Assembly: GCA_038064835.1 (NCBI GenBank)
Contig: JBBTSD010000001.1
Coordinates: 28,422 to 92,421, forward strand
DNA: 64,000 nucleotides
Reading direction: 5' to 3'
Origin: Patescibacteria group bacterium
Lineage (GTDB): Bacteria; Patescibacteriota; Minisyncoccia; Phycocordibacterales; UBA2100
Shown here: one piece after another, positions 1 through 43,404 of the stretch
How positions within the stretch are numbered: position 1 is the stretch's first letter
Layout of the letters: each line of letters opens with the position of its first letter
The notes under the pieces: model-generated
Seen by the model: the letters and a program-made list of their open reading frames with translations, nothing else
Databases searched by the model: none
What the model was told of the DNA's origin: nothing
Made by a program: the position numbers and the translations under genes

Positions 1-3000
1 TCAGCTGCGTTTAATGCAGAACTCTCGCCAGCTTTGGTAAAGATGGGGCAAATAGGAGAAGTGGCACAGGATGCCGTCGCGAGAATAAACGGGCAGGTTC
101 GTGCAGAAATCGACGCCGCAATAGCAACGGCAGGCGCGCGCGCAGAAGGTGCGTTTACTGAGATTCAGCGATCTACAGCAGAGCGGGTGGCAACTGTCAT
201 TTCTCGCGATCAAATGCTTCTCGAGACCCGTATTCGCGAAATCCAAGCAGAACGCAACGCGTGGACTGAGCGATTTACTTGGGTGCAGCGTAATTTTCCG
301 CGTTCACCTCTCGTTGCCGAGCCGTTAGTAACTACAGGAAGCGCAGATAATCCGAGAACAATCAACTACGATACCTACATGCGCGAGACCCAGCGCGAGC
401 TCGATCGTTTAAATGCGGCACTTCAGCTTCGTACGGCGCAGTACAGTACTGTTGCGCGGCTGACAGGGACACCACTCGGAGATGATATAGCTCTCGGTAT
501 AGTTGTTGCGCCAACAACACCTGAAGGGCTTGCCCAGCAGCGCCTTTTAAACCAAGGAATACTTGCAGATTATGCGTTACAGCAAAGAGCCATTCTCGGG
601 GAAGCACGAATCGCTCGACTTTCCGATGCACAGCTCTTAGGTCAGAGCCCTGTGATTGCATCTGAACGGGCTTTTGTTCGCGAGGCGTCGGCTCTGACTG
701 CAGGCAGGCTCGGAGAACTTGCGGGGACAATACCCATGACTCAGGCTACCCAATACGAGATTGGGAAAAATGCAGGTACTATTCGAGACCCTGGGGTTAT
801 CGAATACTTGAGAGATCAAAATGCTTGGTACACTTTTGCAGGGGCAGTGGCACGGGGTTTGAACGAGTCCCTGGGTGACAAGGGACTTCCACCACTGTTT
901 GGAGGGGGAGAGCTTCTCGCTCGCGTGGGGCGAGGGATAACGGGCGACATGCTCAAGGTGGCTCGGTACCCCGTTGGTTCTGCAGAATTATTTCAAACGC
1001 CTGGGCAGATCAGCGGAGGTGTCCTGAGGGCAGGTGGCTCCCTTGCGCTCATGGCGACACCGCTTGGGCTTCCGGGTGCTGAAGCGCGGGCAATTTCAGC
1101 AGTGGCCGCCGCAACTGAAGCCCGGGCAATTGCGGTAGCGGCGCGTGCCGCTACCGTAATAAACACACCAGCCGCGCGCGAGCTCGCGGCTGTTGCTACT
1201 CGCGCCGAGAATGTTGCTGCACAAGCTCTTGCAAGGGCGGGATTGACTACTGCTGGAGGTGTTGTCGTGAGGGCTGACGGCACAATTGCAGCTCGCGTAA
1301 TAGCACCCACTGCCGCTGAGGCTCGTGTAGGTGTTACCGCACCGCGGGTTGTGCGCGCACCTGCTGGTTCAGGTGCCTTAGCCGCTGATACAGGTGTGGT
1401 TGCGCCGGCCGCTCGGGTATCCGCACCTGCACCCGCACGCGTACTTGGTCGTCCAGCCGCCGAATCGCCTGTTGGAGCAGCGACAAGAATCCGTGTTGCT
1501 GAAGCGATAGGTTCCCCACCGCTTCGCGCAGAGACTCGGGTGATAGGGAGAGGGCCACTTCAGGCTGGACAGGCTCCTGCCGTAGCGCGACCAGTTCGGG
1601 TTGTTGAAACACCGCGGCCGAGCCCGGCACCGTCCCAGCGCTTTGCCCAAAACACAACAGCTCGCGAAATTGCTGTCAATCGATCAGTAGCGCCGGTCTC
1701 GGTAAATCGACCTGTCGGTACAACGCAAAGTCCGGTAAGTGCAGCTGTGCCACGCAACATAACGCCGGTTCGTACAGTTTCAAATCCTGGCTCCGTCACT
1801 CCCCGTGCAGTTCCTTCTACAGCTGGTCCGGCCCGTAGCCTGGTTACGCCCCGTAGTCCGGTCGTGTTGGGCAAACCACCGATAACCCGCGGATTTACAC
1901 CTGGTAATCCACAAGTAGCTGGTCGCGCTCGTCCTGCTGATTTTGTGTCTGCCCCAAGGCAAGCACCGCGCGTGGCAGGGCGTCAACAGCAACAGGCACA
2001 GGCGAACGCTTCAAGGGGTGGAGCTTCGGCCAATGCCAACTCTCGCTCACTCACTCCTGATCAGCGATGGGCGCAGACTTTGGAAAAGGCCGAAGTTTTG
2101 GCCGGGAGCAGGAGCGCGCCAGCAGGAGAAAGAGCTGCGGCGGCAAATGCTGCGCAACGAATGCGCGCCGCAGGACCACCATCAGGTGGTCCTGTTCCAC
2201 CACGGGTGAGTGCCCCAAGGACTGCAACAACACCTGCCCCTCGCCCACCTGTTTCAGGATCTCCTGTAAGAAATCCTAGTCAGACAACGGGAGGACCTCT
2301 TGCAACAGTACCTGCTACTCGTCCTGCAACCGCTCCAAGGAGTACTCCAGGATCTACTGCACAAGGTGCAAGGAATCTTGCCCCGCGACCTGTGTCCGGA
2401 GGACAAGGGAGATCGCTTGTTCCTGTTTCGGCCCGGCGTGATGTGCCAAAAACCGCGAGTCCTGCACCACGCGGTACTCCAGGGTCACAACAAATAGACA
2501 CGGCATTAAAGACCCAAGTTCCCATTTTTGGTGGCGCGCGGTCGTCTCCGGCTTCTGCACCTCGTCCTGGCTCACCGCCGACCGTGCGTGAACTCGTTGC
2601 AACTCGAGCAATGGTGCGCGCCGGCGTTGCTTCGGCTCAGGCAGCAGCAATGGCAACACATGCACAATCAATCGAACAGGCATTTGGATATTCAAGTCCG
2701 CAGGCGACATTGGCACGCGCCAACGCAACTGACGCTGCTCGCAACTCCGTTATAGCAGACACTATTGCAAGTAACTTGGCAAACAGAACTGGTCTTGCCA
2801 TGGTCAATATAGATGGTTTCGCGACTGTCGTTCGTGCTGGTGCCGTACCCGAAGCATTTGGATATATGAATGGTACTCGACTGGTGCAAAGCCTTCCATT
2901 TGTTGAAATAGGTGCAACTGCACCTAGTGTTGCTGTGGCACGACCTGGCGCTTCTTTGGCACCTCGTCCTGTGGCCTCAGTCCGACCATCAGCTCCAGCT

Positions 3001-6000
3001 CCGCGAGTTGCTGGTGTCGAGACGATCCCAAGGGGTACGGCGCTGGTTCCTGTATCCGCACGACGCGACTTGCCAGGAGCAGGAGGGCCGACGCCATATT
3101 CAATTCCGGGGCCACGACAAATTCAAGTAGCGCTTGGTAGTCAGGTTGTTCCTCGGTATGGAACGGTAAGCGCCCTCCCTGTAAGCGCAGTTCGTACCGG
3201 TTCGCCACCTACACCTACAGAAATGCTTGCAGTGTCTGAAATTACCCGTGCAGAATTGTTTGCCGCTCGCACGGCTGCAGCAAGTGCCCGTGCATCTGCA
3301 GTTGCAGGTGCTCCAAGAACCACTATTCAGGCGGTACAAGCAGCAAACGCAGTGGTGTCGCGCGCACTTGATGTTGAACGGGTTGTAGTCGCGGCTGCGA
3401 ATCGTGCTGCTTCAGCAGCTGGTCTTGCTTCGGTAACAATCGATGGTACTCAATTTATTGTGCGCACAGGATCGGTACCAGAAGTTGTCGGCTATATGCG
3501 AGGTACTGTGTTCGTGCAAAGTCTGCCGTTTGCTGATCTGAACGCGGGTGCAAGCGTGGCGGTAACGCGACCGGTTATATCATCAGCTCCAAGAACGACT
3601 TCTGCTGCGTCTGCTCAAACTCCCCCTGTCGGCTCAACTCCTACGCCTACCCCGGGACCTAGTAGGGTCTTTACCGCAGACGGTCGTTTTATAGGGGCTC
3701 CCACTAGAGTTGTTGAACGGCCATCTCCACTATTGACAGATATCTCACAACTCCCTGTTTTTGAGGCCAATATCCCGCGCAACCGTTCTCTCGCAGTCAT
3801 TCCGCCTGCTGGTGCAACGGGGGTGTATCCGACTGCGGCGCGAGGATCTTTCGCTCCTGCTGCAGCGCCATCCACGGCTGCGCCACCTCGACCCACGATT
3901 ACTCCAATAACATCTGCACAAGGACAGGCAATTCTAAACTACAATCGTCCTGTCCAATCAATTGAAACAATTTCTCGAGCACTCGGGCGACTGCCACAGG
4001 GGGGGCTTGCGGCAAACTTAGTTGCAGATATAAATCTTGCCCAACTACAATTAAGTGCTTTGGGGATTCTTGTGCCTGGTGGTGGGGTCATGATCCGGCA
4101 GGATGATGGTGTAATGATTGCACGGTATAGCCCCTCTGCTGGTGCATATGTACTCACCCCTGCAGCATTTGGGAGCGATGCTCCCATGCCTCCCGAACCA
4201 GCCCCAAGAGTACATACGCTTTTCTTGGGAGGCGCCCGACCGGGTGCCCCGGTGGACTTACTAGGCATTCCTACACCACCCGAAGTAATACAAGAGGTTC
4301 GTGCACGCGCTGCAGTGCGTGCCGCAATTCAGGGCGGCACCGTTCCGCGCGAAATGATACCACCGCTAGTGGCGCTTCTGGGTGCACCAACTGGATCGTT
4401 TGAGAGGGATCTTGAGGCATTTTTCATTGCCTCTGCACCATCACCAACATACACCGGCACTGCAATTATTCGCCGGTCGCCTGCGCGAGCTCGTGCTGCT
4501 GCAAGGGTAAATGCGCGCAGTGCCGCACTTGCTCGGGGCTTAGCGCCAACAGCCCCTCGCTCAGGGCTGTCTATCGACGACTTGGGAGCTGGGCTCAACA
4601 GCCTGGGTGTTTCGGCTGGTGCTTTTACCACCAACTTTGTTTCAAACACTGTTCTCAGTCGAAGTGGCCAAGATATTCCTGAATCAATAACGGGAAACAA
4701 TGTACAAAATGCGCTTTGGGGCGGGAGCCCGGCCATCTTGGAAAACCAGGGAATGCAGACTGTTTCGTTGGGAGGAGGTATTGCGGATGCCGTAGTCACG
4801 GGTGTGAATTCTGAAAAGAAAAAAACCGAGTGCCTGTCCTCTTGTTTTTCTGTGGTTGGGACTGGAGTCGCACTTGACGGCTCGGGAGGAATTTCCTTTG
4901 TTTCGCATTCTGCCCCCCCAACTCTTGTGGAAAAGAATGCAGTGGCACAAAAAGCTCTGGGAAATCATATCGGTAACGCAATCAAAGACCTGCTTGTCCG
5001 ATCGGTGCCGGGAACAGCGCGGATTGAGATTTTTGGAGGAGGATTCCAGACACTTCCTGGTAGGGAAACTCCTGAGCCTGGGTCGCTTGCTGTGTATGAA
5101 GAAGGAAAAAATTTCCTCGAGGAGACGGCCGTTCAGGCGATTCGACAAGCTCGCGCATTAAATCCTGATATCCCACTTGTGGCTATTTCTAGGCCATTAG
5201 GACCCTCCTATCCTGGAATATCAGCAGAGTCACCCCTTACGGCTGTATTTGTAGATACCCCTCGTCTTACAACGACTGTGTTTGCACCCGAATCCTTGAT
5301 AGCGGAAGGAAGAGGGGTCGCACCAGCTGGTGCAACTACACCAAACTCCCGCCAAACGCTCCCTATGGCGCGTAGTAACATTGGTGCCGAATTTCCGCAA
5401 AATACTGGCGCACTTGTGCAAGTAATCGCCACTCGTGCAGCTGCACTGCAGGGTCAAAATCCATCTCCCACCCCGCCACAACGCATTCTATTAGTGGAAG
5501 ATGACGCACGCGCAGTGAGAGGCTTCCTAGATGCATTCGAAAAATTGTTCCCCGAGCTTCCAGTGGTCAACAAAGGACGCTTCTCCGAGACACCCTCTGC
5601 AGCAGACCTGCAAGCTCCCGGTATCTTGGTCGTCACCTCAGCAGAAAAAGCCCAACTTGCACTCACGGCACCAAGGGCTCTTTCGGTTGGGCTGGTGCTT
5701 CTCGACAATAACTTGCTTGACGGACGACTTGGATACGACATGGTCTACCCGCTCATTAAAGGAAGCCAACCAAACGCTGTCGTTCTTAGTACTTCAGGGG
5801 AAGGCCGGCTTGAACAACCAGGTGTTGGGCATGTCGACAAAGGCATTGGATTCAATGCAAAAAAGCTTTCAGAGGCCTTGGCACAAGCGGGGGTACTACC
5901 CACTGCAAGTGGCATCTCACAAGCCCAACGAGGCGCAGGTGTACTCACTGGCTACCGTGAAAATCCAGTTACCGCAATTCTCCACGCGCGTGCGGCAGGA

Positions 6001-9000
6001 GCTAATCCGTTCGCACCCGCATGGGCACAGCCACAAGTTGGACGAAGTGTTCTTGCACGGCGGGGACAGGGGGTGACTGACAGAGCCGACATTCCTCGAC
6101 GAGGTAGTGGTCGGTGGGGGCCTGTGGCTTCCAATATCCCTGCGGTACTTGGTACGGCTCAAGCACGCGGCGCACTGAATACCCTTGGGCAGATAACTCG
6201 TGGTCCTGGTACATCTCCAGTTTCTTCTGTCGGAGCCGGACAGCAACCATCTTTACCAAGCCAGCGTGATCCGCGTTTGGCTGCACTTGCAACGCGGGTC
6301 CGTGCAATGAATACGATTGTAGTTGTAAACGCGCGTCCAATTCCTGGACGGACAACTGTCGTTCTGGATGCAATAGCCACTTTGCTCGAAGAGGTTTGTG
6401 GGCAAGTCCCTAACTGTCGCAACCTGGAACTTTTCCACGCATTGAGTGGGAGTACACCCGATCCGACACGAATCGTCGCGTTTGACACGCCTGATGGTGC
6501 CCTGCTTGCGGCAGCGCAAAAATTCGCGCAAACATTTCTGACAGATGCTGAAAATCCGCTATCTTCCGCGAGTCTCCGTGTAACCCTCCCCATGGCACGG
6601 AATATTGGTACTGGATTTCCTCAAAACACAGATGTGCTTATCCAAGCAATTGCCGTTCGTGCCGCTGCATTGCAAGCGCGAAACCCAGTCATTTCTGCCA
6701 CCACTCGCATACAACTTTCTACGGCACCTCGTCCAGGACCAGAGAATCCCATTACCGGAAAACCAGATCCAAACCAGGTAGTGACCAATGAAGGTACATT
6801 CTTTGAAATACAAAATTCGCAACTTACTAATGTTGCAGTGGCAGCTATCTTGGACGGTATCGTTGCGGTCGCACCGCCTGTCGTCGTGGACGCAGTTGGT
6901 GTACGAGGTGTATTTGGTGGGAAGCGGTACTTCTCGCCAGTGCTTATCTCTGCAAATGCGCGACCAGTGTCACCTGAAGCTATCCGTGCAGACCTCGCGG
7001 TGCTAGAAGTTTTTGGTGATACCGACCACAGGTTTGATGCGCGAGTAAATCCTCCGCTTGTTTCGAACATCGGTCTTACCTCGGACGGCAGAATGTATGT
7101 GTTTGATTTTGGATATGCACAGCATTTGATGATGGCAAATCCGCTTGATGCGCGCTCGATTGATGCGCAAATGGCGCAGATGACACCAGGAACACAGGCA
7201 CTGTTCGTAAGCAAACTTAACCAACTTGAGGCACGAGTGAGTGGTGCCTCGGGTCTTGCTTTTCTCTCAGGCGTTCTTGGGAATTCTCGCGGGAGTTGGA
7301 AAACAGCTTTTAATTTTATGAGTGATGCGCCGCGCATAGGTAACCCTGCCGCATATTTCCGCGACAACCTGCTTGACCGTATTCGGCAGACGCGCACTGT
7401 AGCTATCGCAATTAATCCCGCTCTCGCAAATCTAGGCACGAGAGGGATTGCAAGAGTCGCTCTTCCTATGGTACGGCCATCACAACTTCTCACCGAAGCA
7501 GAAGCGCTTGCGCTTTTGTCGGGTCCGCCCACCCTTTCGGCGATTGGGGTTTCAGCTAATTTGATAGAGGGCGCCACCGCGTTGATTCGTATCGCTCAAC
7601 AAAATGGTGGCAGACTCCAAAATCCTTTGGCGCAAGCGTGGTACGAAGCTGATATGGAGGCAAGACAGGCGCGAAGATTTTTCCAGAGTGTTCTTAACGA
7701 ACAAAACTTGGCGCGCGGAGCCGTCTCCTTGCTCGCAGGGAACAATGCCCCTCCTGAGCAAATGAGGCAGGCGGTAGCATATGCGACATGGATTGAGAAT
7801 TTTGTACAAGCTGTTGCGACAAACGATTTCCCGAATGATGTGGCAGACACACTCCTGAGAGAGCTACAAAAAGGTGAGCGAACAGTGCCGGTCACTGGTT
7901 CTGTTGCTGGCATGCTTGCGCAAAACACTGCCGCACGCGCCGCTCGACAGAATCTCCCTGCTCTCGAAAATCGATGGATCGAGCTTCAGCGGGCGCATGT
8001 CTCGGCGTCATATTTTATTGCAAATAGTGGCCCCAACCTCGATCCGGGAACAGGAGTTCGCGATGTCAGTTTCCAGAGATCGCAAGAGCTTGTGCGACTA
8101 GCTGTGGAAAGCGAAATGCGACAGCTCGCAACTCAAATTGTTCCCTTACGGCAAACCGCGGCACTTCTCACGCCGTCCGACACATCTTTTATCGGAACCC
8201 TTGCCCGAGCACTGAACCCACAAACCCCACGCCGTGGCCCAGGTGTACTCACTGGCTACCGCGAAAACCCAGTGCTCGCGGCACGGCATGCACGAGCCGC
8301 TGGTGCTGATCCATTCGCACCTGCATGGGCACAGCCACAAGTTGGACGAGGCGGTATTGCTCGGCGCGGGCAGGGAGTGACTCCGATTTCGCCTGCTCAG
8401 ACCCCTCCGATTTCCACCGAGGCAACACTTGTACGGATAGAGAAGATGGTTGTAGATGCACTAAAAAGTATCCGCGAGCAGGCAAAAGGTAACGAGGATG
8501 TACCAAAGAGGCTCATTCCCCATATCCAGCGTCTTACTAGTGGGCAAGGTGTCCAAAATTCAATCGCATCAGCTGTGTTGAATTCAGTTCCGTTCGCCGA
8601 GCTCCCTACACTTACTCAGGCACAGGTATCCGCAATCGCTCTCAATCAGGTGGCCCGCAGAATGGGTCCAGGGCCGCTTTCGCAGATTTTTGCAAAAGGA
8701 TTTGGAGTACTTGAGAAAAGTATCGGTGCCCCTGCTGGGTCGACACTCGCCGGAGTGAGGGTCATCCCCGCAATGCCTGGGATTCTCAGTCCTGTTGTGG
8801 CTCAGTCTGTCGTCCCAAAGAAAGTCTCGAAGCGTGCCATCAACAAGATCGTTAGGCAGGTTAGAACATTTGCTGACGAACCAGTCCGTCAAGAAACTCC
8901 AGCCCAGACTCTGACTCGTTTGCTCGATCGCGTTGGTGCACCACTTGTAGTTAACGAGGCACCACAACAAGGAGTACCTGCTGGTTCTATTGTGGCGCGG

Positions 9001-12000
9001 CCTGAATTTACCGGTACTTATGCGCACACTGTCGCTGAAGGCGCACGCGATTCATCGCAACACTTGCTGTCACTGCCTACTATTATCGACTCATTTCCCG
9101 CGCACCAACTTCGTCGTGCTCTCCGTAGCGCACTGCAAGAAGCCGCCGCACGAGTGGCCCCAACAGATCCGGCCAAAGCCGTGGCACTGCAAAGTGTCTA
9201 CCGCTATTTCGAAGGGAATGCCGCACGCGTGAATGTGTTCAACATCCTTTCAAGTGATTTAAGTGAACTTGCTGGGATTCTCGCGACGAGCGAAGGGACG
9301 GTAAAAAACGCCGTGGGGATGATGGTAGAGCGACGCCCGCGCATCGGAGATGCCGAGTACGATGGGCTCCCACCTACGCAGAAAAAGCAAGTCGTAGATC
9401 AATGGAAAGAGATTGCGCGGTTGTATCTCGAGCTTGTCGGCTCGACTGCGAACGACCAACAGGTAATCGCCGCACTGGGTCGCATGCCCACGAACGACGA
9501 GCTGAAAGCAATGCTTGCCGCTAATCCAGTACAACAAACAGCCACCACTTTTGCGACGGCCGGTCGTACGACTATGGGCCGACACACACGAGCAGTGGGA
9601 GAAGAAGTAGGTGCTCTCAATCTTGCGGGTGGACGAAGTACGACTCGTCCTGGCCAAGCTCGGCGCGGTCCTGGCGGGCCGGTAATTGTGAGCGCACCCG
9701 CGCCACAGGCGGCAGGCGCCGTTTTGACTGGGACACAACCAGTCGCCACTCCATACACGCTGGGGGCGATGACAAACGAAAGCAAAACCAAGCTTGTCTA
9801 CTATATTGAAAATGCCGCGGGTGATGTCATGGGAGCCATGAGTCTTGTCATGGTAAATGCAGATGTGCCTCATGTCATTCTCAGCTCGCTGAGCGTACTC
9901 CCTGCCTATCAAGGTCTCAAACTCGGACGAACATTTTTGCAGGAAGTAAAGAACAGATTGGTAAACGCTGGAATCCCCGTGCTGTTGGTTAATGGAATTG
10001 ACTCGGAGTCACCAGCGTTTCTAATGTACAACCGTTCTGGATGGGTAGATGCGGGTGTGGGAGACCCCATTCAAATGTGGATGGTGAATGATCCAAGGGG
10101 CCTGCTTACCCAAGCAGACCGCACTGCCATAGCGCAAGCTGCAAAACAGGGGGAAAAAGGGGTGAACACGACACAAACCTTTGCGCTCGCTCCTGACGGG
10201 GCAGTCTCGATTGTTGATGTGCCTCCACCTACATCAGTGACCGGCGTGGCACCAGCTGACCCAATTGCACGGCCTCTGGTTGCTATCCAGTCGCGTGCAC
10301 CTCCTGCCGCGATTGTGCCGGATACTGTGGTTTCAGATACGACAACCGCACCGGTTGTTATGGGTTCCCTCGGATTTCCTATCATGCCATCGGATGGGAC
10401 AGTTGCCGGTGTTCTTGAGGGGACTTTTAGAAAACTTGAAACAGAGATGGGGGGTATACCCACCTTGCGGTCGTCCCGCCAGTTTGCCGCGCGGACTGCG
10501 CTCGGTCTCTTCGTTAGGAATATTGCAAACGGACTCGCTAATGCACCGAAAGACGAATTACATGGAGCAGTGATAGCGATTGCTTTTCAATTCCGTGATC
10601 GTACGCTAGGAAATTACCCATCAAATTTGTCTGCAAAAGAAATCATTGCAGAAATGAGCACTGCCTTGAACGAGAAGAACCCACAAAAGTTTGCCTCACT
10701 CAGCGCATGGTCACTCTCCCAGATTTCTTTTGCCCTGGACTCAGTTGAAACATTCGACCAGGGTAGAAAGTTGGTTAATGGCTGGCGCGCCAAAGCCCCA
10801 GACACTCCTGAAGGAAACAAAGAGTTGTTTAAAGAGATCTTCAAATTTGATGCAACGGGCGATGTATTTGTGGTGGCTGGGCCGCAAATGCTCCATGTAT
10901 TTCCAACTGTTCGTGCTGATGTCGATCGTGCGGTCGGGCTTACTGGTGTTGGCGCAGCAGTATTAGCACAGCCACTTGTTCCTGCAGAACTCGGGGGTCG
11001 TGTTGTTATGTACGCTCCTACCGAAGATGTGCTTGCGAATTACCCAGAAATAGCAAGACATGAAGCCGAGCACATTGCGCAATTCATTGCAAATACATCT
11101 GCAGTTTCAAATGCTCGGCATATTTCCTTTCAGCGATTGCTTGCGAAAGCTACCGAGAAACCATCTGAAGCGGTCGCTCGTACACCCCTCCAGTCTTTTG
11201 TGCATTTATTTGCGAATGAGGGGAATTCAAATCAGGAGGGTTTGATTGCAATTCGGGCGAGAGGATATGCGAATGCGTTTATATCTGGTGCACTTTTCCA
11301 GGTGTCCATGGAGCTCTTGTCGTATTTTGTAGCAGATCGCCTGTCGGGTGCCGAACTTGCTGAGCGGGTCAATCGACCATTATACCAAGATCCGATGAAA
11401 GAACTGGCAAAGAAAGAGGCAGAACGGATTACGGGTATCTTGGAACTCAATATCATAAAAGCAACACTTCGTCCGTTTACTCTAGGCACCTTCCTTGGTG
11501 CTCCTGTCGTGCAGGCCACTCCATTCTCGCTGGGAGACAGTTTGAATCCAAACAGGATAAGAGGAAGAGTTGTAATTCCCGATTACACATTCCTTGTCGA
11601 CGAAGGTGTGCGGGTACTTTCCACTCTTACGGCACAGGGGGTTGATCGAGAGGTTATAAACGCACTGCTATCCGGTCTTCCGGTACACCGGTGGAATAGA
11701 GCGGTATCAGCGTTTTTTGCAGAACAGTCGTTCTTTGTGTTTGAAGCAACACCTCGCGACCTTGCTTCCGGACAAGATCTGACAGCAATCCATACGCCAG
11801 CACCGCGTGCAATTAACGGCGGTGCTGTGCCGGCGGCAAGTGTTGCGATCTCCACAACAAAAGAGCTTGCAGACAAACCAATCGATCTCCCGTCAGCAGA
11901 TGCACGGGGGGCTGAATATGCATCAGCACCAGAAGCAACACCCTCCGGATTACAAAGATCATTACCACCCGTGCTTTCATTCGGTCCGCTGAATCTGACA

Positions 12001-15000
12001 GCGCCGGTTTCTGCACCGGTCTCTGGGCTGTTTGGTGATGAGGGACTTGAGTCGGTTTCTACGAGAGGCGTGCTGCTGGAATCTTTATCCGGTTCAGCGC
12101 AGATTGCCCGACAGGCTGCGACAACCCTCCGAGACACTGCCCGTGCATGGGTTGCGTTCCGTCGTCGTGGTGGCCAAGTGAATGATGTGACCAGACAACA
12201 GCTCGCAGGGTCATTCGAGACTATGCCCATTGGTGCTACTTCTGGCACAGCACCAGCGCTCCATGTTGTCCTGGTTTCAGGAGTCAAGTCAAGTCGGCAA
12301 AATTTGTTTGATGGTGCACAGATTATGTACGACACTTTGGCCCAATTGGACTCGAATGTTGCGGTCAGCGTGGCGTATGGTGATTACACGCATGTGGACA
12401 CTGCTCGACAGGCATTTGGTGTGGAGCATTTGATCGGCGAAGCGTCACGCATTCTTAGCAGTGATCCAAACGCAAAGCTTGTTTTCCTTGGGCACTCGTG
12501 GGGCGGTGACTTGTCGGCACTCGCAGTTGGTGTTTTGGAAAGAAACCCACAATTTGTCGGCAGGATTGGACTAGTGCAATACGCAAGTCCAGATCCACGC
12601 AACCTTCGGCCGTTTTTGCGAGCGATTGGTGTGGGCGGTGCGTTGAAACGGCTTGGTTATACGGGTGATGTGCGACTCGAAAGCCCTGTCTTTGTTCTGA
12701 ATGCCGGACGCGACCGTCTGATTCGCATTGATTCATCTGGTGTACAAGGACCAGAAGGAGTTGTTTCTCCACGGCTTGTGCCACAAGCTACTCACACACA
12801 GTGTTTCGGTCCCGAATGTGCGGGTATTGTGGCACAAGCAATTGCGGAAACAGCACGGGCTCTTGATAGGCCTCTGGCCGGCGAATCAGCGCTTGCGTCT
12901 TTGGGTAAACCGGTTACGGTGCATCTTTCGCCAAGCGGCAACAGGGCACGATTCCCCAGAGTTTCTCAGACTGCCCGCAGAGAAGTGTCTGTTCTCTTGC
13001 TCCGACTGGTTCTTGGTGGCGCCGATGTTCCAGGGGCAAACACTGCTTATAGTGGCGGACGACGCCCTCAGATTTCTCCGCGCCTTCGTGGCGAAACATT
13101 ACCACCCGTGACTACCGTTGTTGATGCAACACCAGCACCGACTGGCGTTGTCAGTGGTTTTGGTCCAAGCATGAATTTTCTATCAGGCCCACTTGGCCGA
13201 AATCGCGGCCCGGTGTTTGCACCACCTGACGCGCGAAGTGCAGCTGCAGATGGTATTCCTGTTGCCCAGCTTGAGGCTGAACAGGTCGCGCGTTTCGATG
13301 ATGAAATCGACCGTGCGCTCGATATTATTCGTGCCGACAGCACAGTTGGGTCCTCGGAGTGGGATCGCGTCGCGGCACTTTTGGCAAGTGATGATTTTGT
13401 TGGGAAAGTCCAGGCGGCCGTCGTGGAATCAGGCGACACGAATGGTATTCGACCGGCCATTGCGAAAGAGCTGTACGCATGGGGAGAAAAGTCAGGTTCT
13501 CGTGAGGCTACAAACCTGGTCAGACGAGTTGCGCTGCAGATTCAGTCCAGTTTTGATGCGTCAATCCTTGCAGCAGATCAGAAAGCAATAGACGCACGGC
13601 TTGCAAATTTTCAAACGCAATTGATAAAGGCTGCACGCGATGGCGCCACCGCACGAGTCCTCCGCACTATGACACTCAGATTCGTACAGCAATACAGTGG
13701 TGGATTAGAGTCGCCCGATGTACGGATGATACGGAATACTCTTGTAGAGGCCCTTGCTAGCACGCGCGTACGCTCAAGGAAGGTGACGGAAAGGTTGCTC
13801 GCTCCCATCAGCCCACTCCCACCAGCGACCACACCCCCTTCCAACAGGGAAAAACTCACAAAGATTCGTGTCGCGACAACTCCCTCGGGGCTTTTCCGGG
13901 CTGTGCGCTCGGCGCTCGAGTCAGAAGTTTTTACAAATAGTCGAGTTTTGGGGGTAGTCAAGAAGATTGATCTTGGTTCCATCGCAGAAGGGGGAGTGGC
14001 GGGCACAGCTGAGATTCTGGCGGAAGCATTGACGACAGCATTGGAACCACAGGGCAGGGCACCTGCGCGGGCAAGATACATACAACGCGTTACACCGATT
14101 ATCGCCGCGCTCCAAACTCATACGAAAACAGACATTACATCTGCATTTGTGCGCGCAGCCAATGCTCCGCGAGTTGCTGCAACCCCCCGCACCACCCGCC
14201 AACCGCTCACCCGCGCGGCACTACAAGCGGCTCGCGCTCGCGCAGGATCACTGCAGTCCGCAACCATGAATACGATGGCACAAGCGGCGCGGGCAGTGGG
14301 TGTGGCGTTGGTGCTTGCGGGCGCACCCCAATCTGCGGTGGCACAAGAAGCACCAAAAGCAGGGGTCTCTGTGCCATCGTTGGTACAAGCAGGGATAGAT
14401 GCACGGTTGTTCAGGGGAAACGATGCGCAGATGGTTGAACGCGCACGAAAGGCCATTGTGGGGAACGGGACAATAATTGGCGCGATTAATGTACGCCCGG
14501 GTGTGCCACTGGTATATCTCATCGGAGAGATTCATGACTCGCTGATTTCTAAAAAAGCTGAGGAAATCGTGGACCAAATCCTTCCGTTTGCTCGGAACAT
14601 CGGTCATGAGGGGATTTCTTCTGAAGAAATTCCAGCAGCCGTCGGAGGACTTCACTTTGGTGTCGAAGATCTATCGCTCTACAGACAAGGCTCGTTTCTT
14701 AGCCAAATGTGGTTTTTTCTTAACGCACGCATGGGGAGAGTTGTGAACGCAAGTTATCAAGATGCACAGACGGCCGAGGAGTTTGTCGACCGACTCACCA
14801 CAGATTTCTGGGAGAGTGAGTTTGGCTCTATTTACAAGAAAAAATATGAGGAAAATACAGTCGATGCCCGACTGGTTGAGACGCGCAGAGACGCGCGGGA
14901 CCTTTTGGTTAAAATAGTTCAGAGCTTATGGAATACACATGGTCCAACCAATGTTGATTTAAGGGACGAACTGGATGCAGTAAATGGGCAGATACGACTT

Positions 15001-18000
15001 TCCGTGATTAATCAGCGCTGGGCTGAGAACATAGAAAAGGCCCTTGCTATCCTGCCGGGGGGTAGTGCGGTGATTGCAGTGGGTGCAAGGCACCTGATCG
15101 ATATCCCCATGACACCATCACGACTTCCCGAGTATCGCGCCTTAATCGGGCAGTCGATTCAAGGGGCCTTGGCCGCGCGTGGTATAGGAGTCGTAATCAT
15201 ACTGCCGAATAATTATACCAATGTCAGTGGTATTTCTCGCATAAAGGCCGCGATTGCTTTCGTCGAGATGTCTGCGGTAATGCGCAGTACTGCTCCGATC
15301 TTAGCAGTGCCACCCACCCCCAAGTTAGTGCAACCCCCAACAGAAGCCGTGAGACCGTCTCGTACCAAGGTGTATGAGAGGCCTGGCAGGTTCTCCCCGG
15401 GCAATGGGTTGTTACCAAGGGATAAGGCGCCTACTCGACCAAATCGCCCCACCCGCCAGCCCCTCACCCGCGCGGCATTAAGGGCATCGCGAGAACGATT
15501 GGGTGGCGTCCCTGGCGTTACGACTCGTTTGTCGAATCGGTTTGCAAAAGTTGTAGCAATTGCGTGGAGGATTGGACACGGACATGCGCTCGAAAAGCAT
15601 GGGCCGACCATCGGAACTATTGATCCTGTAGTTCTTTCCCGCATTGTTGCCCGAACGATGCTTGCTGGCATCACAATTTCACGCTCGCCACGAGCAACTG
15701 TGTATGTGGATGCGGAATCACGCATTATCGTTATTCGCGACAGGAATTCTCGGAGCAGTGTGGGTGTGGCAGATGCAGGGACAGTGTATCGGCTTCCGAC
15801 AGGAAGCGGCGACCCCGTTGCATACGCAACAGAAAAGGCCGAAGAGATTTTCAAGAATGATGTTGCGCGAGCAATTGTCGCGGAACATGGTGCAGAGATG
15901 ATTGCTTCGGGGCAGTGGCCAGTAACCAATCCTTCAAGCTTGCGCAACTACATCACAGCGTCAATGACGCAGGGTGTTGAGCAGATGACCCCCTCAGGCG
16001 CTAGGGTATTCGTTGACTCAAAACGCAACACCATCGTACGCGTGAGCCCGGGCGCTTCCGTTGTTGCGACGGCACAAAAATTCGCAAATAGAGAGGCTCT
16101 ACAAGAAGGACTTGCACAAATTATGGGGGGCATGCAAGTGACGCCGAGCCCAACAGTTGCCATAGTTCGTTCACAACCACTGGCACCAGGTGTGGTAGAA
16201 GGCCCACGCTCTTCTGTGCGGCTTGAAAACGCGGCATTTGGTCGTCTTGCGCAAGGACTCTCCGTTACTGAGCGAACGAGTCTGAAACAGGTATTCGATA
16301 CACTGCTTGCGACGAATGACTCGTTCCGTGCACAAATACATGCTTTTGGGCAACCGGATGTCACCGCGGTACAACGGGACGCACTGCGCCCAGCATTGCT
16401 CGCGCAAATTTCTGCCGGAAATCAGGTGTCGGCTACTGCCGCTCAACGGCAAAGCAACCCTAGAGGCCTTGTTGCACGCATTGTAGACGCATTCCGCTAC
16501 GCGCTCAGCGGAATGCGGAGTGGGAATACGAGCACCACCAACATGTTCGGTGCGGCCCTCCTTGAAAAGTTCTTCACCAACTTCTCTGCGCGCATGGTGC
16601 AAACCCGCAATGTGGTGCAGTCTGAGCAGCAGACAACCTCACTTACTTTATCAGCGGTGCAACCGATTCCTGGAACGGGTGCTCTGCGGCGATTTGGTGC
16701 GGCAGGTGTCGAAGTGGCCAAGATCTTTTTCGGTATCACCCCGCGTCCGACAAGCGGCTCGGTTTTTGCCACAGATTCTTTCGGTGCAAATGTGCCGGAA
16801 GAAATCCCTAGCGAAGTGATTGATAATCTGCCTGAACTTAATCAGACCAGTCCAGCCATTGCTTCAAGAGTCATTTTGCCACCCGAGGTTTTGAACGATG
16901 GTGGGATTGATTCCTATCCCGTTAGCCGAGAAACGCTTGTCGATACTATTGGTGGTCGTTTTCATCCGCTTGATACAAAACCGACATCCCAAGCGGCACA
17001 GTTTGTCACCGCCGCACTCTTTAAAGGATTTTTGAATGTCTCTTCTGTTGTTAAAATCGGCGACCGATTCTATTCATACGAGGCCCCTGGAACAATGGCA
17101 CATCCCACTGCAGGTTACCCTGCTTTTGATGCAACAAAGAAAGCCTCTCTCGAGGCCGACCTCGAGATTCTGAGGCTGGTTATGCATGATCTTGATCATA
17201 AAGCACCCAATCTCCACAATGTTGCTTTGTTGGAAGACGGGAATTATATGATTTTTGATTTCGAATTCTCGCATGATGGGTTCTGGCGTGGTTGGAGACT
17301 TTCGATTGAAACCGACGACCGTATTGTACAAAGAATCATGCTGACGAAGCTTCAGCGACTTCAGAGTTTCTATCAATCCGATGAAGGAGTGGCTCTCATG
17401 AAATCTGTGTTTGCTCGCGCTGGTGTTCCTCTGGAGGAGATATTTGAAAACCCGGCTAGCCAAGGAGAAAAAGATGCAAGCACCGCGGCATTTCATGCAA
17501 GGTTTATGGAACGGATTGCTATCGGTATTTCAGACCTTAGAGAGAAACTTGGTCCGGCTGATTTGTCAGTAGCTAATCGTGCTCTTGACAACTTGGTAGC
17601 AACCGCACCTCGTCCCGCTTCCGTGGATGCACCTGCCCCAGCCCAAGAGAACGACCTTCTCGATCGAATTGATACTACAGAGAATCTAATCAGTGCCCTT
17701 CAGGTGATAGTTCGGCAAGGACAATTAAATACTGCTGATGTTGGAAGAATCGCTGAGGTGTCGGTCGCGCTCGACAATGCCGCTACTGCGATGAGGAACG
17801 GAAATATGGCAGTGGCTGGAACTGAAGTGTCTGTAGCGGAAGCACTCATAAACGACCTGGCTGTCAGCAAACCAGCTCTCGTCGCGCAGGCTCGCGCAGC
17901 ACAACCAGGGCGCCCACTGCCGGCAGGTGCGGGTGTGCCGGAAGGAACCCCGCTCACTAAAGCTGAAATACTAGGCAACTTGTGGTACGAAGAAAATCAT

Positions 18001-21000
18001 TCAGTAAATAATCCAGACAGTCATAACTACAGAGCATCAGTCTTTTTGAACGGGAAACTTTATTCAGTGTTCTTTCTGTATAATATGAGTACAGATCTGG
18101 ATGGAGAGAGGGTTTTACATATCGAACTAATCAGGAGTAGCGGGCAACCAGGTGTCTTCCAATCACTGCTTGCATTTGTCGCTGATCGAATTATCGCCGA
18201 AGGAGCCACTAAAGTTGACTGGTTTACGACGGCGAGCGAGACCACCCCCAATACTCATTTTGATGTAACGCGATTGAACGCGCTTTATTCGCGCATAGCG
18301 CGTTTTCCTGGATCAACAAAAAAGCCAAGATCTCGGAATACTTACTCTGGCTTTGACTACAGCGTGCCAGCCCGTGCATTTATTGGATTCCTAAGGAATG
18401 TAGGAATTTCGCCTCGAGGTACAATAATCACTCCCGAAGAAGCTAAAAATATATTAATCGATTCAATGGGTCGAGGAAGTCCTACTTCAGTGGAAGTAAT
18501 TGTACCTGAACAAGTTCAAGCTACTCCTCAGCCCGCGATACCACCTGCACCCCAGGCTGATGCACCTGCCCCGGTCCAAGAGGACAGAGGTGCTCAGGGT
18601 GTCGCCTCTCGGTTCGTCGCTACTCCCAAACTAATCGATGAGCGCAATCGTCTTGCCGCCGCGTCCCGAGGGTTCGTTGGGCGCGTTTTGGAACGCGCTC
18701 GTGGAGAGTTGGTGCCGATTGAAGTGGGGCGAGTGAGCATTGGGGCCGCAGGAAATACGCGCATTTCCGGCATCACTGGCTATAGAGTAAACGACCGCGG
18801 TGAATCTTTCTTGCCAACTGCAGTAGGAGGAAGCTATATCCAAATACGCACGCCACGCGTGGGCCTGATGCGCGCACTCGCAGAGGAGCTTGGTGTTGCC
18901 GCTCCGGCGACGCCAAACCTGGCACCGATTGGTTTTGCAGGGCCAGTACCAGATGACCGCGCGCGCTCAGCGCCTGCGCAAGCTCAAGATGCGCCTGGTA
19001 GCCAAGCAGATACGATAGATGAGACACCTATTTCTGACGACAACAGTCTGCCACGCATATTTGAACGGGAAATCGCGGCAAGAGAGCAAGAGATTCGTGA
19101 ACGGGAATTGGCGATACCTGCAGAAGCTCCCACACCTTCATTGCCTGCGCCTCGTACCAGCGCCGAAATCCGTGCTGCCGCGCGTGTAGCATTACCCACA
19201 CCACCAGCTGCACCAGTACTTCCTGCGCCAGTTCGTCCTCTACCGGCTCCATTTCGCCCCGCTCTGCGCACCACAGCTTTGCCATCACCACTGCCAGCAG
19301 TACTTCCACCACCACTCCCGCCGGTGGCCACCCCACTCGCACCAGATCGCGCACTGCCTCCACCGCTGACGCCTGAGCAGATACAGGCAAGCTTTGCCGC
19401 ACCAAGTTCACCGCTCATTGAGCCAGCTGCGCTCGATGTGATTTCTGCGTGGGCCGCTGCTCGAGAGGATGCAGACACAGAGATTGCGAGGACACAAGAG
19501 GAACCAGTGGTGCTTCGACCAGGTGTTGAGATCCTGACAACTGACCCAACGCGGTCGTTGCAAGTGCGAATAGGAAGCGCAGAAGTTCCATTCAGATGGA
19601 ATGGATCACCAGAAATACGATTTGCCGGAGATGTGCGTCCACAAGCGGTACCGCTCGAAGGACGCGCATTCCCACTGCAGGACTATGTGCAAGCAATCGT
19701 TAACAACGAACCGGGTGTAAGTGGTGATGTGACAGCATATCCGATTTCCCGTCAAAATAATGTGAGTAGTGTAGGTACTCGAGGAATCGTGGTCGCTACG
19801 CCAAATCCAAAATTGGTGGGCAAGAGGTTGGTTATAACAGGTATCGGTGTTGTGCGATTGTTGCCACGCGCAGATGGAAGAGGAGCCGAGTTTGTTATTG
19901 AAGCACCAGATCCAACGCGAACATACGCAGGAGTGCATGGGTTCCCAAGTGGGGAATCTGTGGATGCTGCTGGAAATATTTCCTCGGTGTTTGATACATC
20001 GCCATTCGGCGCGTATACCCCATACGAATTGGACGCAAAAATTAGATTTACACAAGCTTTTTCTCCAAGGTACGGGATTGAAGTGGTGGCCGCTGGTATG
20101 TACGAAGGAACACAGATGGGGTGGTTTGCATACACGCTTCCCGACACAGTTCTTTCTCCGGAGGAGACCATGGTGGCCGATGTCGCGCTTCCTGGTCCCG
20201 CAGGGAGGATTTACGGTGCTGCTCTGGGATCACTATTTGCAGAAATTCGACGCTGGCATGATATGGGGATCGTCCATGGTTCGCTACACCCAGGAAATTG
20301 GTATGTCGACAGTCGGACGGGTAGGCCGACGGCTCTTCTCACTGATCTTGGAGCGGCATCATTGTTAAGCGATCCGCATGCCGAAGAACAAGTTGCGGGG
20401 CGGGTGCCGGCACCTGAAATAACAGCTCGCCTTGATTCCCTAGGAAAAATGACTCCTGCAGAAAAGAAAAAATTCCTTGATATTTCAACTGCCCTGTACC
20501 GCAATACCGCCTTTGTTTTTGGGCCCAGGACTCATGGTCTTCTTGCAGAGCAGACTGCACAGGGGTTGCAATTAGAGTCTTCCCTCCCTATCCCTATTCG
20601 TGGCCTTTCTGGTGCACAAGTGTTATACATGCTCGACTTGGCGGCGCGCGCCATGCACAGTTACCTAAAGGAACCAGCCACAGCACAATCTCTAGATGTC
20701 GTGCGAGGGTACTTAGTAAATAGGCACCAACAGCTTGCGGTCGCAGCTGCGAATCGCCTGGGTATTTACCAAGGATCAAATATTTCGGAACTTGTTCACT
20801 TGGTTGGACTCACGGGTGTTCCGTTTACCACAGCAACTTTCGAACTTGTCGAGGAGATTAGTCTTGATTTGGCCCGCGGGCAAGGCACCTATGTTTCCTT
20901 GGTCACACCGACGGTTGAATCGGTGACGCTGGAAGATGTTTCTGTTTGGGCATCAACACGAGAGTCTGCAGACGCAGAGCTTACGCGTGTACAGGATGAA

Positions 21001-24000
21001 GCTGTGGCGCTTTCAGGACTTGCACAGGCACTGCGACAAAATGTGGCGACTATGCGCGCGGCGGAAGCAGGAATGGATCCGGCTGGAATTCCTGCATGGC
21101 AAATAGCGCAACGACACTACGAGTCAGCTGCAGAAGTGCTTGATAATGCTGTGGCCATGGGTATGTCAGGTGGGTCTGCACTGAGCGAAGCGCAGGCGCT
21201 CATGACGCTTGCAGGCGATGCGGAAAAAACAGCAACAGTCGCAACTGCGCGCAGTGAGGCGAATGTTCGTGCTCGCGATATGCAAGGATTTGCACGACGC
21301 ACGCTCGCGCGTATGACTGGCACAGGAAATCTTGATGCTGCGATCAAGTTTGTAACTGCCCGACAACGAGCACTTGGGGCCGAGCAAGCATTTCTTGCGG
21401 GACGCACTGCGGATGGCAATCGGCTCGCAAACCAAGCTGAGGACTTGTGGGTAGACGCTTCGATAATCGACAAGATAGGGAATCTACAGAAGCTTATTGC
21501 AGAAGTGAATACGCTTGCGCGCGGAACGCCGGAGGCCGATGATATTGAAAACTTGCTTTTGGATATTGCTCGTGAAGGTGCGAACAGGGTCAATGTGTGG
21601 GTGGATGGAGCGACCAGTGTCTCGCCTGCAGAGTGGTTTGATAATGCGATTCGTACTGTTGAGCCGCTCCACACTCGGTTGTTGCGCGATCGCATGACTC
21701 AGTTCGAAGCGAATGTGAACACGGCGGTTACTGGCGAGATTCCAGGGCTTGTTGCCGCAAACGACAACCGACCTGAGATAGAATTGTTGCGTGAGCAAGC
21801 TGCGGGTCTTGCTGGATTAATGCGAGGTGAAGCAGACCGCATACAGCAAATGATCAACGAAGGCGGCGTGCATCCTGATGAATTCGCGCTGTGGGAAACT
21901 GCGCGCGTTACTTTTGGTCGCGCCGCTGACACTTTTGCGCAAGAAGTAGATGCCACCGATGTTGCTGCAATGTCTGCGATTGGCCGCGAAGCGCTTGAAT
22001 TGGCACAAACGGCGTCTGGATTTGAACAAACAGCCCGCGATGCAGAGCGGACTCGCACACAACCCGCGCCACAAAAAAGGCTTGCCGAGAGAATCCTTGA
22101 TGCAGTTGCGGCCGCCGGTGGCGTACCTGAATCTGTGGCAGATACTGCCGCACCAACAGAAGTGCGAGAACGGCTAATAGACAGGATTGCTCGTTCCCGA
22201 GCAGGAATTCAGGTACGCAATGTATACCGTGGCGCACAACAAGGTGTTGAAGAATCTGATCCGCAAACAATCGTGGAGGATGCTGCAGGCTCGGGCAATT
22301 CGTTGGGAACGTCACGACCAAATGCAGAGCCAAGTCTCGGAGAAATTATCGCAGCTATTAGCGCGGACGCATCTGGTGTTGGCAGAAGCACAACAGAAGG
22401 ACAAAATCCAACATCTTCGTTCACGGACACTCTGGACGCTGACGATGCGGTGGCCGCACGAGATGCGGTGGCCACCGCATTGAGAAATAGTAACAACTTG
22501 GATGCGGCCGACCGAACCCCTGATGTTGTCGAGCGGGAAGAGCTGAATGAAATAGCTTTTGACGCGTACACGAACGCGCGCGACTTGTACTCTCAAGCGC
22601 GCACAGCAACAGCTGAATCTGATGTGGCGCAATTGCGTGGTTTTGCACAAGATGCCATGAATCGTGGCGATCTTGCGGCACAAGGTGCGAATAGCAACAG
22701 TCCAAATGAACGAGCGCGTATTCGCACAGTCCTCGATACACAAGTAGGTGGTGGTGCAGGTGGACCACCTCCCCCTCCAACGGGAGGTAATGGAGGAGGA
22801 GGAGGTAATGGCGGATCTTCTGGCGCGTCGAATGATGACCTTCCTACATTTATAACTAGAAAGAGTGGTAATGGAGGAAGTGCCTCAAATCCCATAAACG
22901 CAGGTGGCGGGTCTGGGGGCACTGATGACGGAAGAGTTAGAAGAATGACACAAATACTGCTCAATTTGTTGCGAGCGATTTTCAACTCGGAGGAGCAGGA
23001 ACAGCCAAAACCACTCCCACCTCTTCCACCCGCAGGGGATTCCGCAAGACGAGACCGTGTGGTGCCACCCGCTATACCCCCGAAGGGACCTTCTGATGCT
23101 GTACGGCGAGATTTTGAAGATTTGGCACGCAGATTCAGTCCGCCACCAGCGCCGCCTCCTATGCCACCTTCGCCTGACATACGCCCCGGCGACTTCTACC
23201 CAAGATACAACTTGGACGGCACAATCAAAGAAGTTGTTCCGCGAGATGGCAGTGCACCGCGTGGTCCGGATACTCCTGAATACGATGCGGTTATCGCAGA
23301 TATGAGGCGTCGCGGGGAAGATGCACGCGTTCCCGACGGGGCACCTCCCGCCATGCCACCGGCACCTCCCGCCCCAGTTATGCCGCCTCCAGTTGCGCGT
23401 CCCGCACCTGTCGCGCCACCCCCAGCCACGGCACGACCGGCGGCAGATCCAGCTGCACCACCGCCTGCTCGTCGCCGGACTACCGCAGATCCAACACCCG
23501 CAGCGCGCCCTGCTGGCGCAACAACCCCACGCGGAGGTGCCACTCCAGGCACTAGTCCGGCAGGCGGTCCCGGCTCTATTCTCCCTCAGATAAGTAGTCT
23601 CTTCGACCAACTTATGAAGCTCTTTGGAAAGACCCCTCCGGCAGGCGCAGGTGGACTAGGTGGCTCACCACTTAATGGGCTTGGCCAACCCGCGGTGCCA
23701 ACAAATCCTTGTGCGCGGTATCCAGGGACGACACTCGTAAACAACCGATGTACTTGTGCGACGGGGTATGGGTGGAACGGCACGCGGTGCGCCACAAAGA
23801 ATGGCACTCCGGCACCAACTCCGGGGAAACCTGGTCCACAGGCCGATCTCGGCTGTTCGCCTGAAGAAGCGCGGGAAGGCGAAGCAATTGTGTTTGCCTG
23901 GAGTTGTCAGAATTCTGATACTGTTTCCGCTGTTGGATTTAATCCTGAGGGATTCATGGTTGATTCCAAAGAAGGAAAGATGCCAAAGCCGCCAGAAGGA

Positions 24001-43357: not shown

Positions 43358-43404
43358 AGTGTGAATATTAGCTGAATAACAAAAGTGAGTATACCATCAC
43401 GCAC

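Follow-up and report, generated by a model that had tools for sequence, protein, structure and literature searches.

A kinase-fold module without the catalytic aspartate in a giant protein of a Patescibacteria group bacterium is a fused copy from a small undescribed protein family

Some proteins with a kinase fold catalyze unexpected chemistry, such as SelO, which AMPylates, and SidJ, which glutamylates. The loop of SelO reads HGVxNTDN, with an Asp next to the Asn, and the small protein-kinase-like (PKL) ATPases Bud32/PRPK and RIO keep the catalytic Asp. A kinase-fold protein is by the usual definition a pseudokinase if it is without one of the β3 Lys, the Asp of the HRD motif or the Asp of the DFG motif (PMC12599244). 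For example, the CP1 pseudokinase from Leptospira has the loop 'HKSLCPGN' with Ser at the Asp position (PMC12599244). SelO keeps the β3 Lys and the αC Glu (PMC3281104), and it is the precedent for a conservation pattern of this kind that hides a different ATP-dependent chemistry (PMC3281104; PMC12663964). The subject of this paper is a kinase-like domain without the HRD Asp, here called module 2, which is part of a giant protein encoded in 64,000 nucleotides (nt) of DNA from a Patescibacteria group bacterium (GCA_038064835.1, contig JBBTSD010000001.1, positions 28,422 to 92,421 of the forward strand). This whole stretch is referred to as the window and all positions are counted from its first letter. 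An earlier note, made from the letters alone, had drawn attention to two kinase-like modules in the giant protein, of which the second (module 2) has Ser in place of the catalytic Asp. The features needed for module 2 are the following:

34 to 24363, + strand: giant open reading frame (ORF) carrying all modules; 8109 amino acids (aa) in the window, open at the 5′ end of the window
19516 to 20883, + strand: module 2, aa 6495-6950, with stand-alone homologs of 353-606 aa that correspond to the entire unit
20038 to 20040, + strand: Lys6669, an invariant Lys, in a helix at the place of αC (helix 169-182 of the model)
20269 to 20310, + strand: IVHGSLHPGNWYVD, catalytic-loop equivalent, aa 6746-6759
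20281 to 20283, + strand: codon TCG of Ser6750 at the HRD Asp position, read in the DNA
20296 to 20298, + strand: Asn6755, metal-binding Asn, invariant in 19/19 sequences
20335 to 20352, + strand: LLTDLG, aa 6768-6773
20344 to 20352, + strand: DFG equivalent D6771-L-G, its Asp invariant in 19/19 sequences

Module 2 has a protein-kinase-like fold, since the family profile, a hidden Markov model (HMM), an AlphaFold2 model and Foldseek agree on kinases. In a phmmer search with module 2 against the sequences of the PDB only three weak matches were obtained, all of them protein kinases (Stt7 with an expectation value E of 0.0067, LegK4 and PIM2), and in the HMMER alignments HGSLHPGN lies over HRDLKPxN and DLG over DFG or DLG. 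A profile of the family alignment, which holds 19 sequences (18 relatives and the window copy), matched 572 sequences of the PDB at E ≤ 10, the best of them at 1.2e-5; all 60 of the 572 that were listed are protein kinases, e.g., MSK1 and TBK1, aligned at αE-HRDLKPEN-DFG. Module 2 scores 68 bits against a kinase-core HMM that was built without the window copy. The AlphaFold2 model, calculated from the family alignment (predicted local distance difference test, pLDDT, 86.3; predicted template modelling score, pTM, 0.87), exhibits a protein-kinase-like core with a small β subdomain on its N-terminal side; after the DFG equivalent there follows a C-terminal bundle of helices of about 150 aa. With this model Foldseek found 152 matches at E ≤ 1e-3, and the 50 listed are without exception protein kinases or pseudokinases; SelO (PDB 6eac) is the second-best structural match among those listed. 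The bilobal kinase fold of the PKL superfamily is thus recognized in the comparison of the predicted structure, and N6755 and D6771 are in register with the N and D of HRDLKPEN and DFG in all 19 sequences.

These results bear out what the earlier note had read from the motif alone: HGSLHPGN…DLG, in register with HRDLKPxN and DFG, is the catalytic loop plus the DFG equivalent, and the Ser stands at the position of the HRD Asp, both in the alignments with Stt7, LegK4 and PIM2 and in those of the family profile with MSK1 and TBK1. Both motif strings that it had singled out, the one of module 2 and the one of the upstream module 1 (see below), were recovered where it had placed them, all inside the one ORF (34..24363, + strand). 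Their composite patterns are beyond chance, because the observed counts exceed the expectation from shuffles of the giant protein: Hx[DSTNE]xxxxN..D[FLIWMY][GE] occurs once (0.015 expected) and DxDH[KR]..N..hD[FLIWMY] twice (0.0 expected). The claim of two kinase-like modules stands only in part: profile and structure searches with module 2 find kinases, whereas module 1 finds none by profile.

Module 2 does not belong to a family that is described in the databases. Scans of the segment with Pfam, NCBIfam, PHROGs and PADLOC yielded nothing significant, and neither Pfam nor NCBIfam has a model for the family. A word-indexed homolog search with module 2 returned no relatives and one with the family profile a single protein (P0018); scans of a genome collection and of metagenomes with a span of 1401 aa also returned no relatives, and with an alignment of five sequences only one locus, identical to the relative P0002. 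An exhaustive HMMER search with module 2 through 1.84 billion representatives (cut-off E ≤ 1e-3) found 23 proteins, 18 of which are relatives of 353-606 aa with E between 7e-51 and 3e-6. The best three cover residues ~11-433 of the 456 residues of module 2 at 30-35% identity and the weaker ones shorter stretches. The four weakest of the 23 matches are ordinary kinase-like proteins with the loops HGDxHxxN or HRDLHPGN, and P0005, with 24 matched stretches, was rejected as spurious, since this protein of low-complexity repeats matches in 'LPGPAGR.FGAA' and nowhere else. This shows module 2 to be a fused copy from a small and so far undescribed family, the other members of which are stand-alone proteins of ~350-600 aa. 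Two members have names in the databases, MBI2021961.1 from Candidatus Daviesbacteria and KKQ34873.1 (A0A0G0GV19) from candidate division WS6, and both are annotated as 'hypothetical protein'. A second giant protein with module 2 was not found among the representatives of the exhaustive search.

Two observations on individual sequences should be mentioned. The member of 519 aa (7893-9452 of its locus) on CAYOOO010000007.1, a contig titled 'uncultured Gammaproteobacteria', and MBI2021961.1, which is annotated as Candidatus Daviesbacteria, are 100% identical; probably one of the two has been assigned to the wrong taxon. A bacterial Ser/Thr kinase of 661 aa (P0023) has a canonical HRDLKPAN/DFG domain and, in addition, an N-terminal region with HGSLHPGNLWVG, which is a Ser-for-Asp loop as in module 2 of the window.

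What sets the family apart is the position of the catalytic base. In the 19 sequences the column of the HRD Asp is occupied by Gln (12), Glu (5), Ala (1) or Ser (1) and by Asp in none; Gln or Glu is thus found in 17 of them and Ser in the window copy alone. The general-base Asp of the H-x-D motif, by which canonical kinases are recognized (eukaryotic protein kinases, aminoglycoside phosphotransferases (APH), RIO and Kdo kinases), is absent from module 2, which is therefore a pseudokinase by the usual definition. As to the conservation of the catalytic triad, which the earlier note had left to be checked, the Asp is missing in 19/19. Its proposal of a pseudokinase or of altered chemistry has proved the right frame, with the correction that the Asp was not lost in the giant protein alone. 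Because all 18 stand-alone relatives are without the Asp, the loss is ancestral to the family, and as judged from the alignment it is a family trait rather than a private inactivating mutation of the window copy.

Around this one position the family is very strongly conserved. Although identity to the window copy is only 20-32% among the relatives, twelve residues are invariant in the 19 sequences: G6581, R6583, V6607, G6647, G6659, K6669, Y6700, H6742, H6748, H6752, N6755 and D6771. His6748 is the His of the HRD position, His6752 takes the position of Lys168, and His6742 lies in αE; Gly6581-x-Arg6583 forms an invariant G-x-R motif. In the Gly-rich segment [ST]GxGVV[RK] the Val is invariant and its two Gly are found in 18/19. 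The signature of the family is H-x-[Q/E]-x-H-P-G-N followed by D-W-x-T; the window copy has kept every invariant residue, with D-L-G-A in place of D-W-x-T. The β3-like strand ends with E6623, a position with Glu or Asp in 13/19 sequences. From the model we hypothesize a swapped Lys/Glu pair, consisting of Lys6669 in the αC-like helix and the mostly acidic residue at the end of the β3-like strand.

The only variable site is that of the former base; the metal ligands are frozen, as are several basic and His residues. This is not what decay looks like, and a decayed copy accounts for such a pattern less well than altered chemistry or nucleotide binding does. Module 2 would still bind a Mg-nucleotide, via Asn6755, Asp6771 and Lys6669, and its chemistry would be other than the canonical base-assisted O-phosphorylation. 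Module 2 could hydrolyze ATP or act as a switch, like Bud32 and RIO, transfer a nucleoside monophosphate, like SelO, or carry out a transfer for which the acceptor does not require a general base. Within the giant protein module 2 would then be one of several enzymatic cargo modules. Taken together, we consider it probable that module 2 is a fused family copy of PKL fold without the catalytic Asp, likely Mg-nucleotide-binding and with non-canonical chemistry, and that module 1 and its paralog, module 0, belong to a separate orphan family.

An alternative is that module 2 is a dead pseudokinase, i.e., a scaffold or binding domain without catalysis and perhaps even without nucleotide binding, that has been kept for its shape. 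The absence of the HRD Asp, which makes it a pseudokinase by the usual definition (PMC12599244), would agree with this, as would the departure of DLGA in the window copy from the family D-W-x-T and the fact that the canonical pair of β3 Lys and αC Glu cannot be recognized by sequence. What makes us regard this explanation as unlikely is that twelve residues, including the metal-binding Asn, the DFG Asp, three His and a Lys, have remained invariant in 19 sequences with only 20-32% identity to the window copy, and that only the position of the former Asp varies freely, a pattern more like a repurposing of the SelO type. Scaffold pseudokinases usually lose several catalytic residues irregularly.

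It should be noted, however, that several points weigh against a module 2 that still binds nucleotides and performs another chemistry. At two positions that are well conserved in the family the window copy has another residue, L for W at 6772 and A for T at 6774, and departures of this type could reflect relaxed constraint. The roles given to Lys6669, as the Lys that would bind the phosphates, to Arg6583 and to the Gly-rich segment are putative. The TM-scores of the Foldseek matches are low (0.25-0.34, normalized to the query), so module 2 is far from every solved kinase; and a family profile of the N-lobe alone found no sequence match to any solved kinase in the PDB, so that the equivalents of the β3 Lys and of the P-loop are not assignable by sequence. 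Finally, the chemistry is one that we infer, because no family member has a known biochemical function and a conserved gene partner was not found in the seven neighbourhoods of stand-alone members. These neighbourhoods consist of housekeeping genes, with a GT4 glycosyltransferase nearby in two of the seven; genes for proteins of 151 aa that lie beside the family gene in two of the loci came into question as a common partner and were rejected as not homologous.

How does the family compare with the kinase-fold systems that are known? Its only significant sequence link is to the eukaryotic-type Ser/Thr protein kinases (Pfam Pkinase, PF00069), with MSK1, TBK1 and MAPK aligned at E of about 1e-5. 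The similarity is, however, restricted to ~60 residues, Gln, Glu or Ser stands in place of the HRD Asp and His in place of Lys168, and an APE motif or an activation loop cannot be recognized. The Pkinase model gives sub-threshold matches in 5/19 family members (best E 0.0098), the window copy not being among them, and its gathering threshold is reached by none of the 19. The bacterial pseudokinases mentioned above have, like the module 2 family, lost the HRD Asp and retained the loop Asn; they are, however, subfamilies of Ser/Thr kinases recognizable by sequence (PMC12599244), whereas the module 2 family is without an affiliation of this sort and has its named members in candidate phyla radiation (CPR) bacteria. 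From Bud32/PRPK and RIO, to neither of which module 2 has a Pfam match, the family differs in the missing catalytic Asp and in having an extra N-terminal β subdomain and, after the DFG equivalent, the helical bundle of ~150 aa. To SelO there is a structural match and no sequence match; beside the Asn, where SelO has its Asp, the module 2 family has a conserved Gly (P-G-N), and the β3 Lys and αC Glu that SelO keeps cannot be recognized by sequence.

The family differs also from APH and choline-kinase-type kinases (PF01636) and from the Kdo/WaaP lipopolysaccharide kinases, in which the position now occupied by Gln, Glu or Ser is the catalytic Asp; there is no profile match to them at E ≤ 10 and no evidence of a small-molecule substrate for module 2. 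This is of relevance since the earlier note had likened the two modules, paired with GNAT-like modules, to the bifunctional aminoglycoside-modifying enzymes composed of an acetyltransferase and a phosphotransferase (AAC/APH). According to this explanation two APH/RIO/Kdo-type kinase modules together with GNAT modules would form a small-molecule-modifying unit within the giant protein. The stretches concerned are:

9796 to 10032, + strand: GNAT acetyltransferase domain, the only one confirmed by a profile, aa 3255-3333 (Pfam Acetyltransf_1, E 7.7e-5, 23.4 bits, cut-off 20.7)
17884 to 18603, + strand: stretch called GNAT-like by the earlier note (HIELIRSSGQPG...), aa 5951-6190, between modules 1 and 2

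A GNAT domain is thus indeed present in the same protein. However, its distance is about 2300 aa to module 1 and about 3160 aa to module 2, so that it is not directly fused to either, and the stretch between the modules, aa 5951-6190, has no Pfam match at E ≤ 10 and no relevant PDB match. The supposed pairing with GNAT modules therefore falls away. Neither module matches the Pfam models of APH (PF01636), RIO or Kdo at E ≤ 10, no NCBIfam model of an APH was matched, and the scores of APHs are not above those of Bud32, SelO, RIO or ordinary protein kinases. All members of the family lack the catalytic Asp by which APH chemistry is defined, and for module 1 the kinase status is not supported by any profile test. 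The stand-alone members have no GNAT fusion, and a GNAT gene was seen in only one of the seven neighbourhoods, about 4 kb off. The AAC/APH reading is thus largely refuted and we hold it to be very improbable.

Module 1, the upstream module, has turned out to be something else than module 2. The earlier note had called it kinase-like, remarking that it keeps an Asp, and had overlooked that the giant protein contains a second copy of the same domain, module 0, which carries a literal DFG. The features are:

6784 to 7458, + strand: module 0, second copy of the module 1 domain, aa 2251-2475, with GDTDHR...N...DGRMYVFDFG
16945 to 17643, + strand: module 1, orphan domain, aa 5638-5870
17176 to 17220, + strand: LVMHDLDHKAPNLHN of module 1, aa 5715-5729
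17248 to 17271, + strand: MIFDFEFS of module 1, aa 5739-5746

The two copies match each other with E 8e-5 in an internal BLASTP and with a Smith-Waterman score of 89 (31.7 ± 4.9 for shuffles). Their most conserved windows of 25 columns are the D-x-D-H-[KR] and N..DG....FDF blocks; written out, the blocks common to both are ADL..L..V..D-x-D-H-[KR] and N-[VI]-x-L-x-x-D-G-x-x-x-[IV]-F-D-F, and in module 1 the conserved block reads ADL..L..V..D-x-D-H-K ... N5729 ... DG....F-D5742-F-E. A third copy was not found in the giant protein with an HMM of the two. Module 1 has no match in Pfam (E ≤ 10), NCBIfam, PADLOC or PHROGs, and phmmer and profile searches of the PDB with it found no kinase. No relatives of modules 0 and 1 were found by word-indexed search or in genome-collection and metagenome scans with their alignment, and tblastn of module 1 against plasmids and phages gave nothing meaningful. 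To module 2 there is no relation (hhalign of module 1 against the module 2 family, probability 0.2%). By all these sequence comparisons module 1 and module 0 make up an orphan domain family of their own.

The kinase-core HMM gives module 1 only −0.6 bits and module 0 −0.4 bits, and in module 1 it matches only the DFG-like stretch, with a score that ~2% of shuffles reach. Because no kinase profile matches module 1 and the resemblance is limited to this stretch, the call has to be given up on the earlier note's own terms, which were no kinase in profile searches or a resemblance confined to short stretches. The AlphaFold2 model of module 1 (pLDDT 39) is of too low confidence for a fold comparison. 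Nevertheless, the acidic/His/Asn loop together with DF[G/E] may be a very reduced kinase-like active site, and modules 1 and 0 may thus be real, extremely reduced kinase-like domains, with D5721 as Asp, K5723 as Lys, N5729 as metal-binding Asn and D5742 as DFG Asp in module 1. This would agree with the block D-x-D-H-[KR]...N-[VI]-x-L-x-x-D-G-x-x-x-[IV]-F-D-F in both paralogs, with the literal DFG in module 0 and with the best local match of the kinase-core HMM, which falls on the DFG stretch in both copies. The spacing from N5729 to D5742, read from the sequence, is 13, and the spacing from the Asn to the DFG Asp of protein kinases is also 13. In the low-confidence model the secondary-structure elements follow one another as helix, two strands, long helix, loop, three strands and helices, an order that would suit αC-β4-β5-αE-catalytic loop-β7-β8-C-lobe. 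With the profile results standing against it, we consider this possible and lean toward thinking that it is not so. A nucleotidyltransferase motif (G-S...D-x-D...D) is also conceivable for module 1; there is, however, no G-S at the right distance, and the D-x-D lies at the end of a helix in the low-confidence model.

The giant ORF extends beyond the window: the frame has no stop before position 34 and the start lies outside. For the same gene on GCA_964361175.1 (contig CAYHZP010000001.1, 330,809 bp) a product of 8767 aa has been called, which compared with the 8109 aa in the window puts about 658 aa upstream of it. The giant protein itself was not returned by the word-indexed protein search. 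Its neighbours are ordinary bacterial genes, for PKD and peptidoglycan-binding proteins, an L,D-transpeptidase/D-Ala-D-Ala carboxypeptidase, RecJ, 2-oxoacid dehydrogenase E1 and E2, ComEC, two YcaO proteins and EF-G. Module 2 is bracketed by two copies of a repeat:

19384 to 19515, + strand: 44-aa repeat copy 1, on the N-terminal side of module 2, aa 6451-6494
20881 to 21012, + strand: 44-aa repeat copy 2, on the C-terminal side of module 2, aa 6950-6993

The two copies (aa 6451-6494 and aa 6950-6993) are 39% identical (E 6e-7, internal BLASTP), which suggests a cassette-like assembly. Other repeats are found elsewhere in the protein. A repeat of 36 aa, RGPGVLTGYRENPV...PFAPAWAQPQVGR, flanks module 0 with 83% identity (aa 1965-2000 and 2733-2768; window 5926-6033 and 8230-8337), a unit of 188 aa is present twice with 42% identity (aa 791-978 and 1000-1187), and further internal repeats are aa 1773-1799/2182-2207 and aa 4719-4781/5138-5198. 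Together with the 44-aa repeat around module 2, the internal repeats suggest that the protein may be built from cassettes bracketed by repeated linkers.

Several stretches of the giant protein resemble other known elements. RILLVEDDARAV ... LVLLDNNLLDG (window 5482-5724, aa 1817-1897) resembles a CheY-like receiver domain; Pfam reported nothing on aa 1-3000, this stretch included. HEAEHIAQ (window 11059-11082) is an HExxH metalloprotease-like motif and thus a candidate enzymatic module, and GHSWGG (window 12490-12507) is a candidate nucleophile elbow of a lipase or α/β-hydrolase, with a Pfam match to Lipase_3 (E 0.0022) that is below threshold. MNTMAQAARAVGVALVLAGAPQSAVAQEAP (window 14266-14355, aa 4745-4774), deep in the ORF, resembles a membrane segment or else a signal peptide that would be cleaved at AxA, and at about 14890-15100 there is a weak Pfam match to TraB/PrgY/GumN (E 0.0076), also below threshold. 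The C-terminal end (window 22747-24360, aa 7572-8109) consists of Gly- and Pro-rich low-complexity runs followed by the Cys-rich segment CARYPGTTLVNNRCTCATGYGWNGTRC, for which Pfam has only faint matches to Cys-rich domains.

Among the neighbouring genes, the two YcaO genes are divergent (51687-53216, − strand, and 53161-56385, + strand), their 5′ ends overlapping by ~55 nt according to the ORF coordinates, and in the second YcaO is joined to an AMMECR1 domain. A gene for ComEC followed by a metallo-β-lactamase gene (window 41289-44253) lies ~17 kb downstream of the giant gene. In the locus of the WS6 family member the same pair follows a few kb downstream of the family gene (10946-13235 of that locus), which is possibly conserved synteny.

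The analysis corrects the record on this DNA: the Ser is no inactivating mutation of this copy alone, the upstream module is not callable as a kinase, and the analogy to AAC/APH does not hold. It also provides concrete residues for testing, namely N6755, D6771, K6669, H6748, H6752 and S/Q6750. By analogy with SelO and SidJ one might go further and regard the family with H-x-[Q/E/S]-x-H-P-G-N / D-W-x-T as enzymes of a new class within the kinase fold that would use ATP for reactions other than the transfer of a phosphoryl group to a hydroxyl (e.g., AMPylation or a different nucleotidyl or acyl-adenylate reaction) and that would here be cargo in a multi-enzyme protein of nearly 8800 aa from an uncultured bacterium, with modules 0 and 1 as a second, reduced kinase-like family; in this full form we find the proposal rather doubtful. 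Kinase-fold proteins that lack the catalytic Asp but keep the metal ligands have repeatedly proved to do unexpected chemistry. Here a compact undescribed family of that type is defined, the named members of which are from candidate-phyla-radiation bacteria and are all annotated as 'hypothetical', and one copy of which has been built into a giant multi-domain protein.

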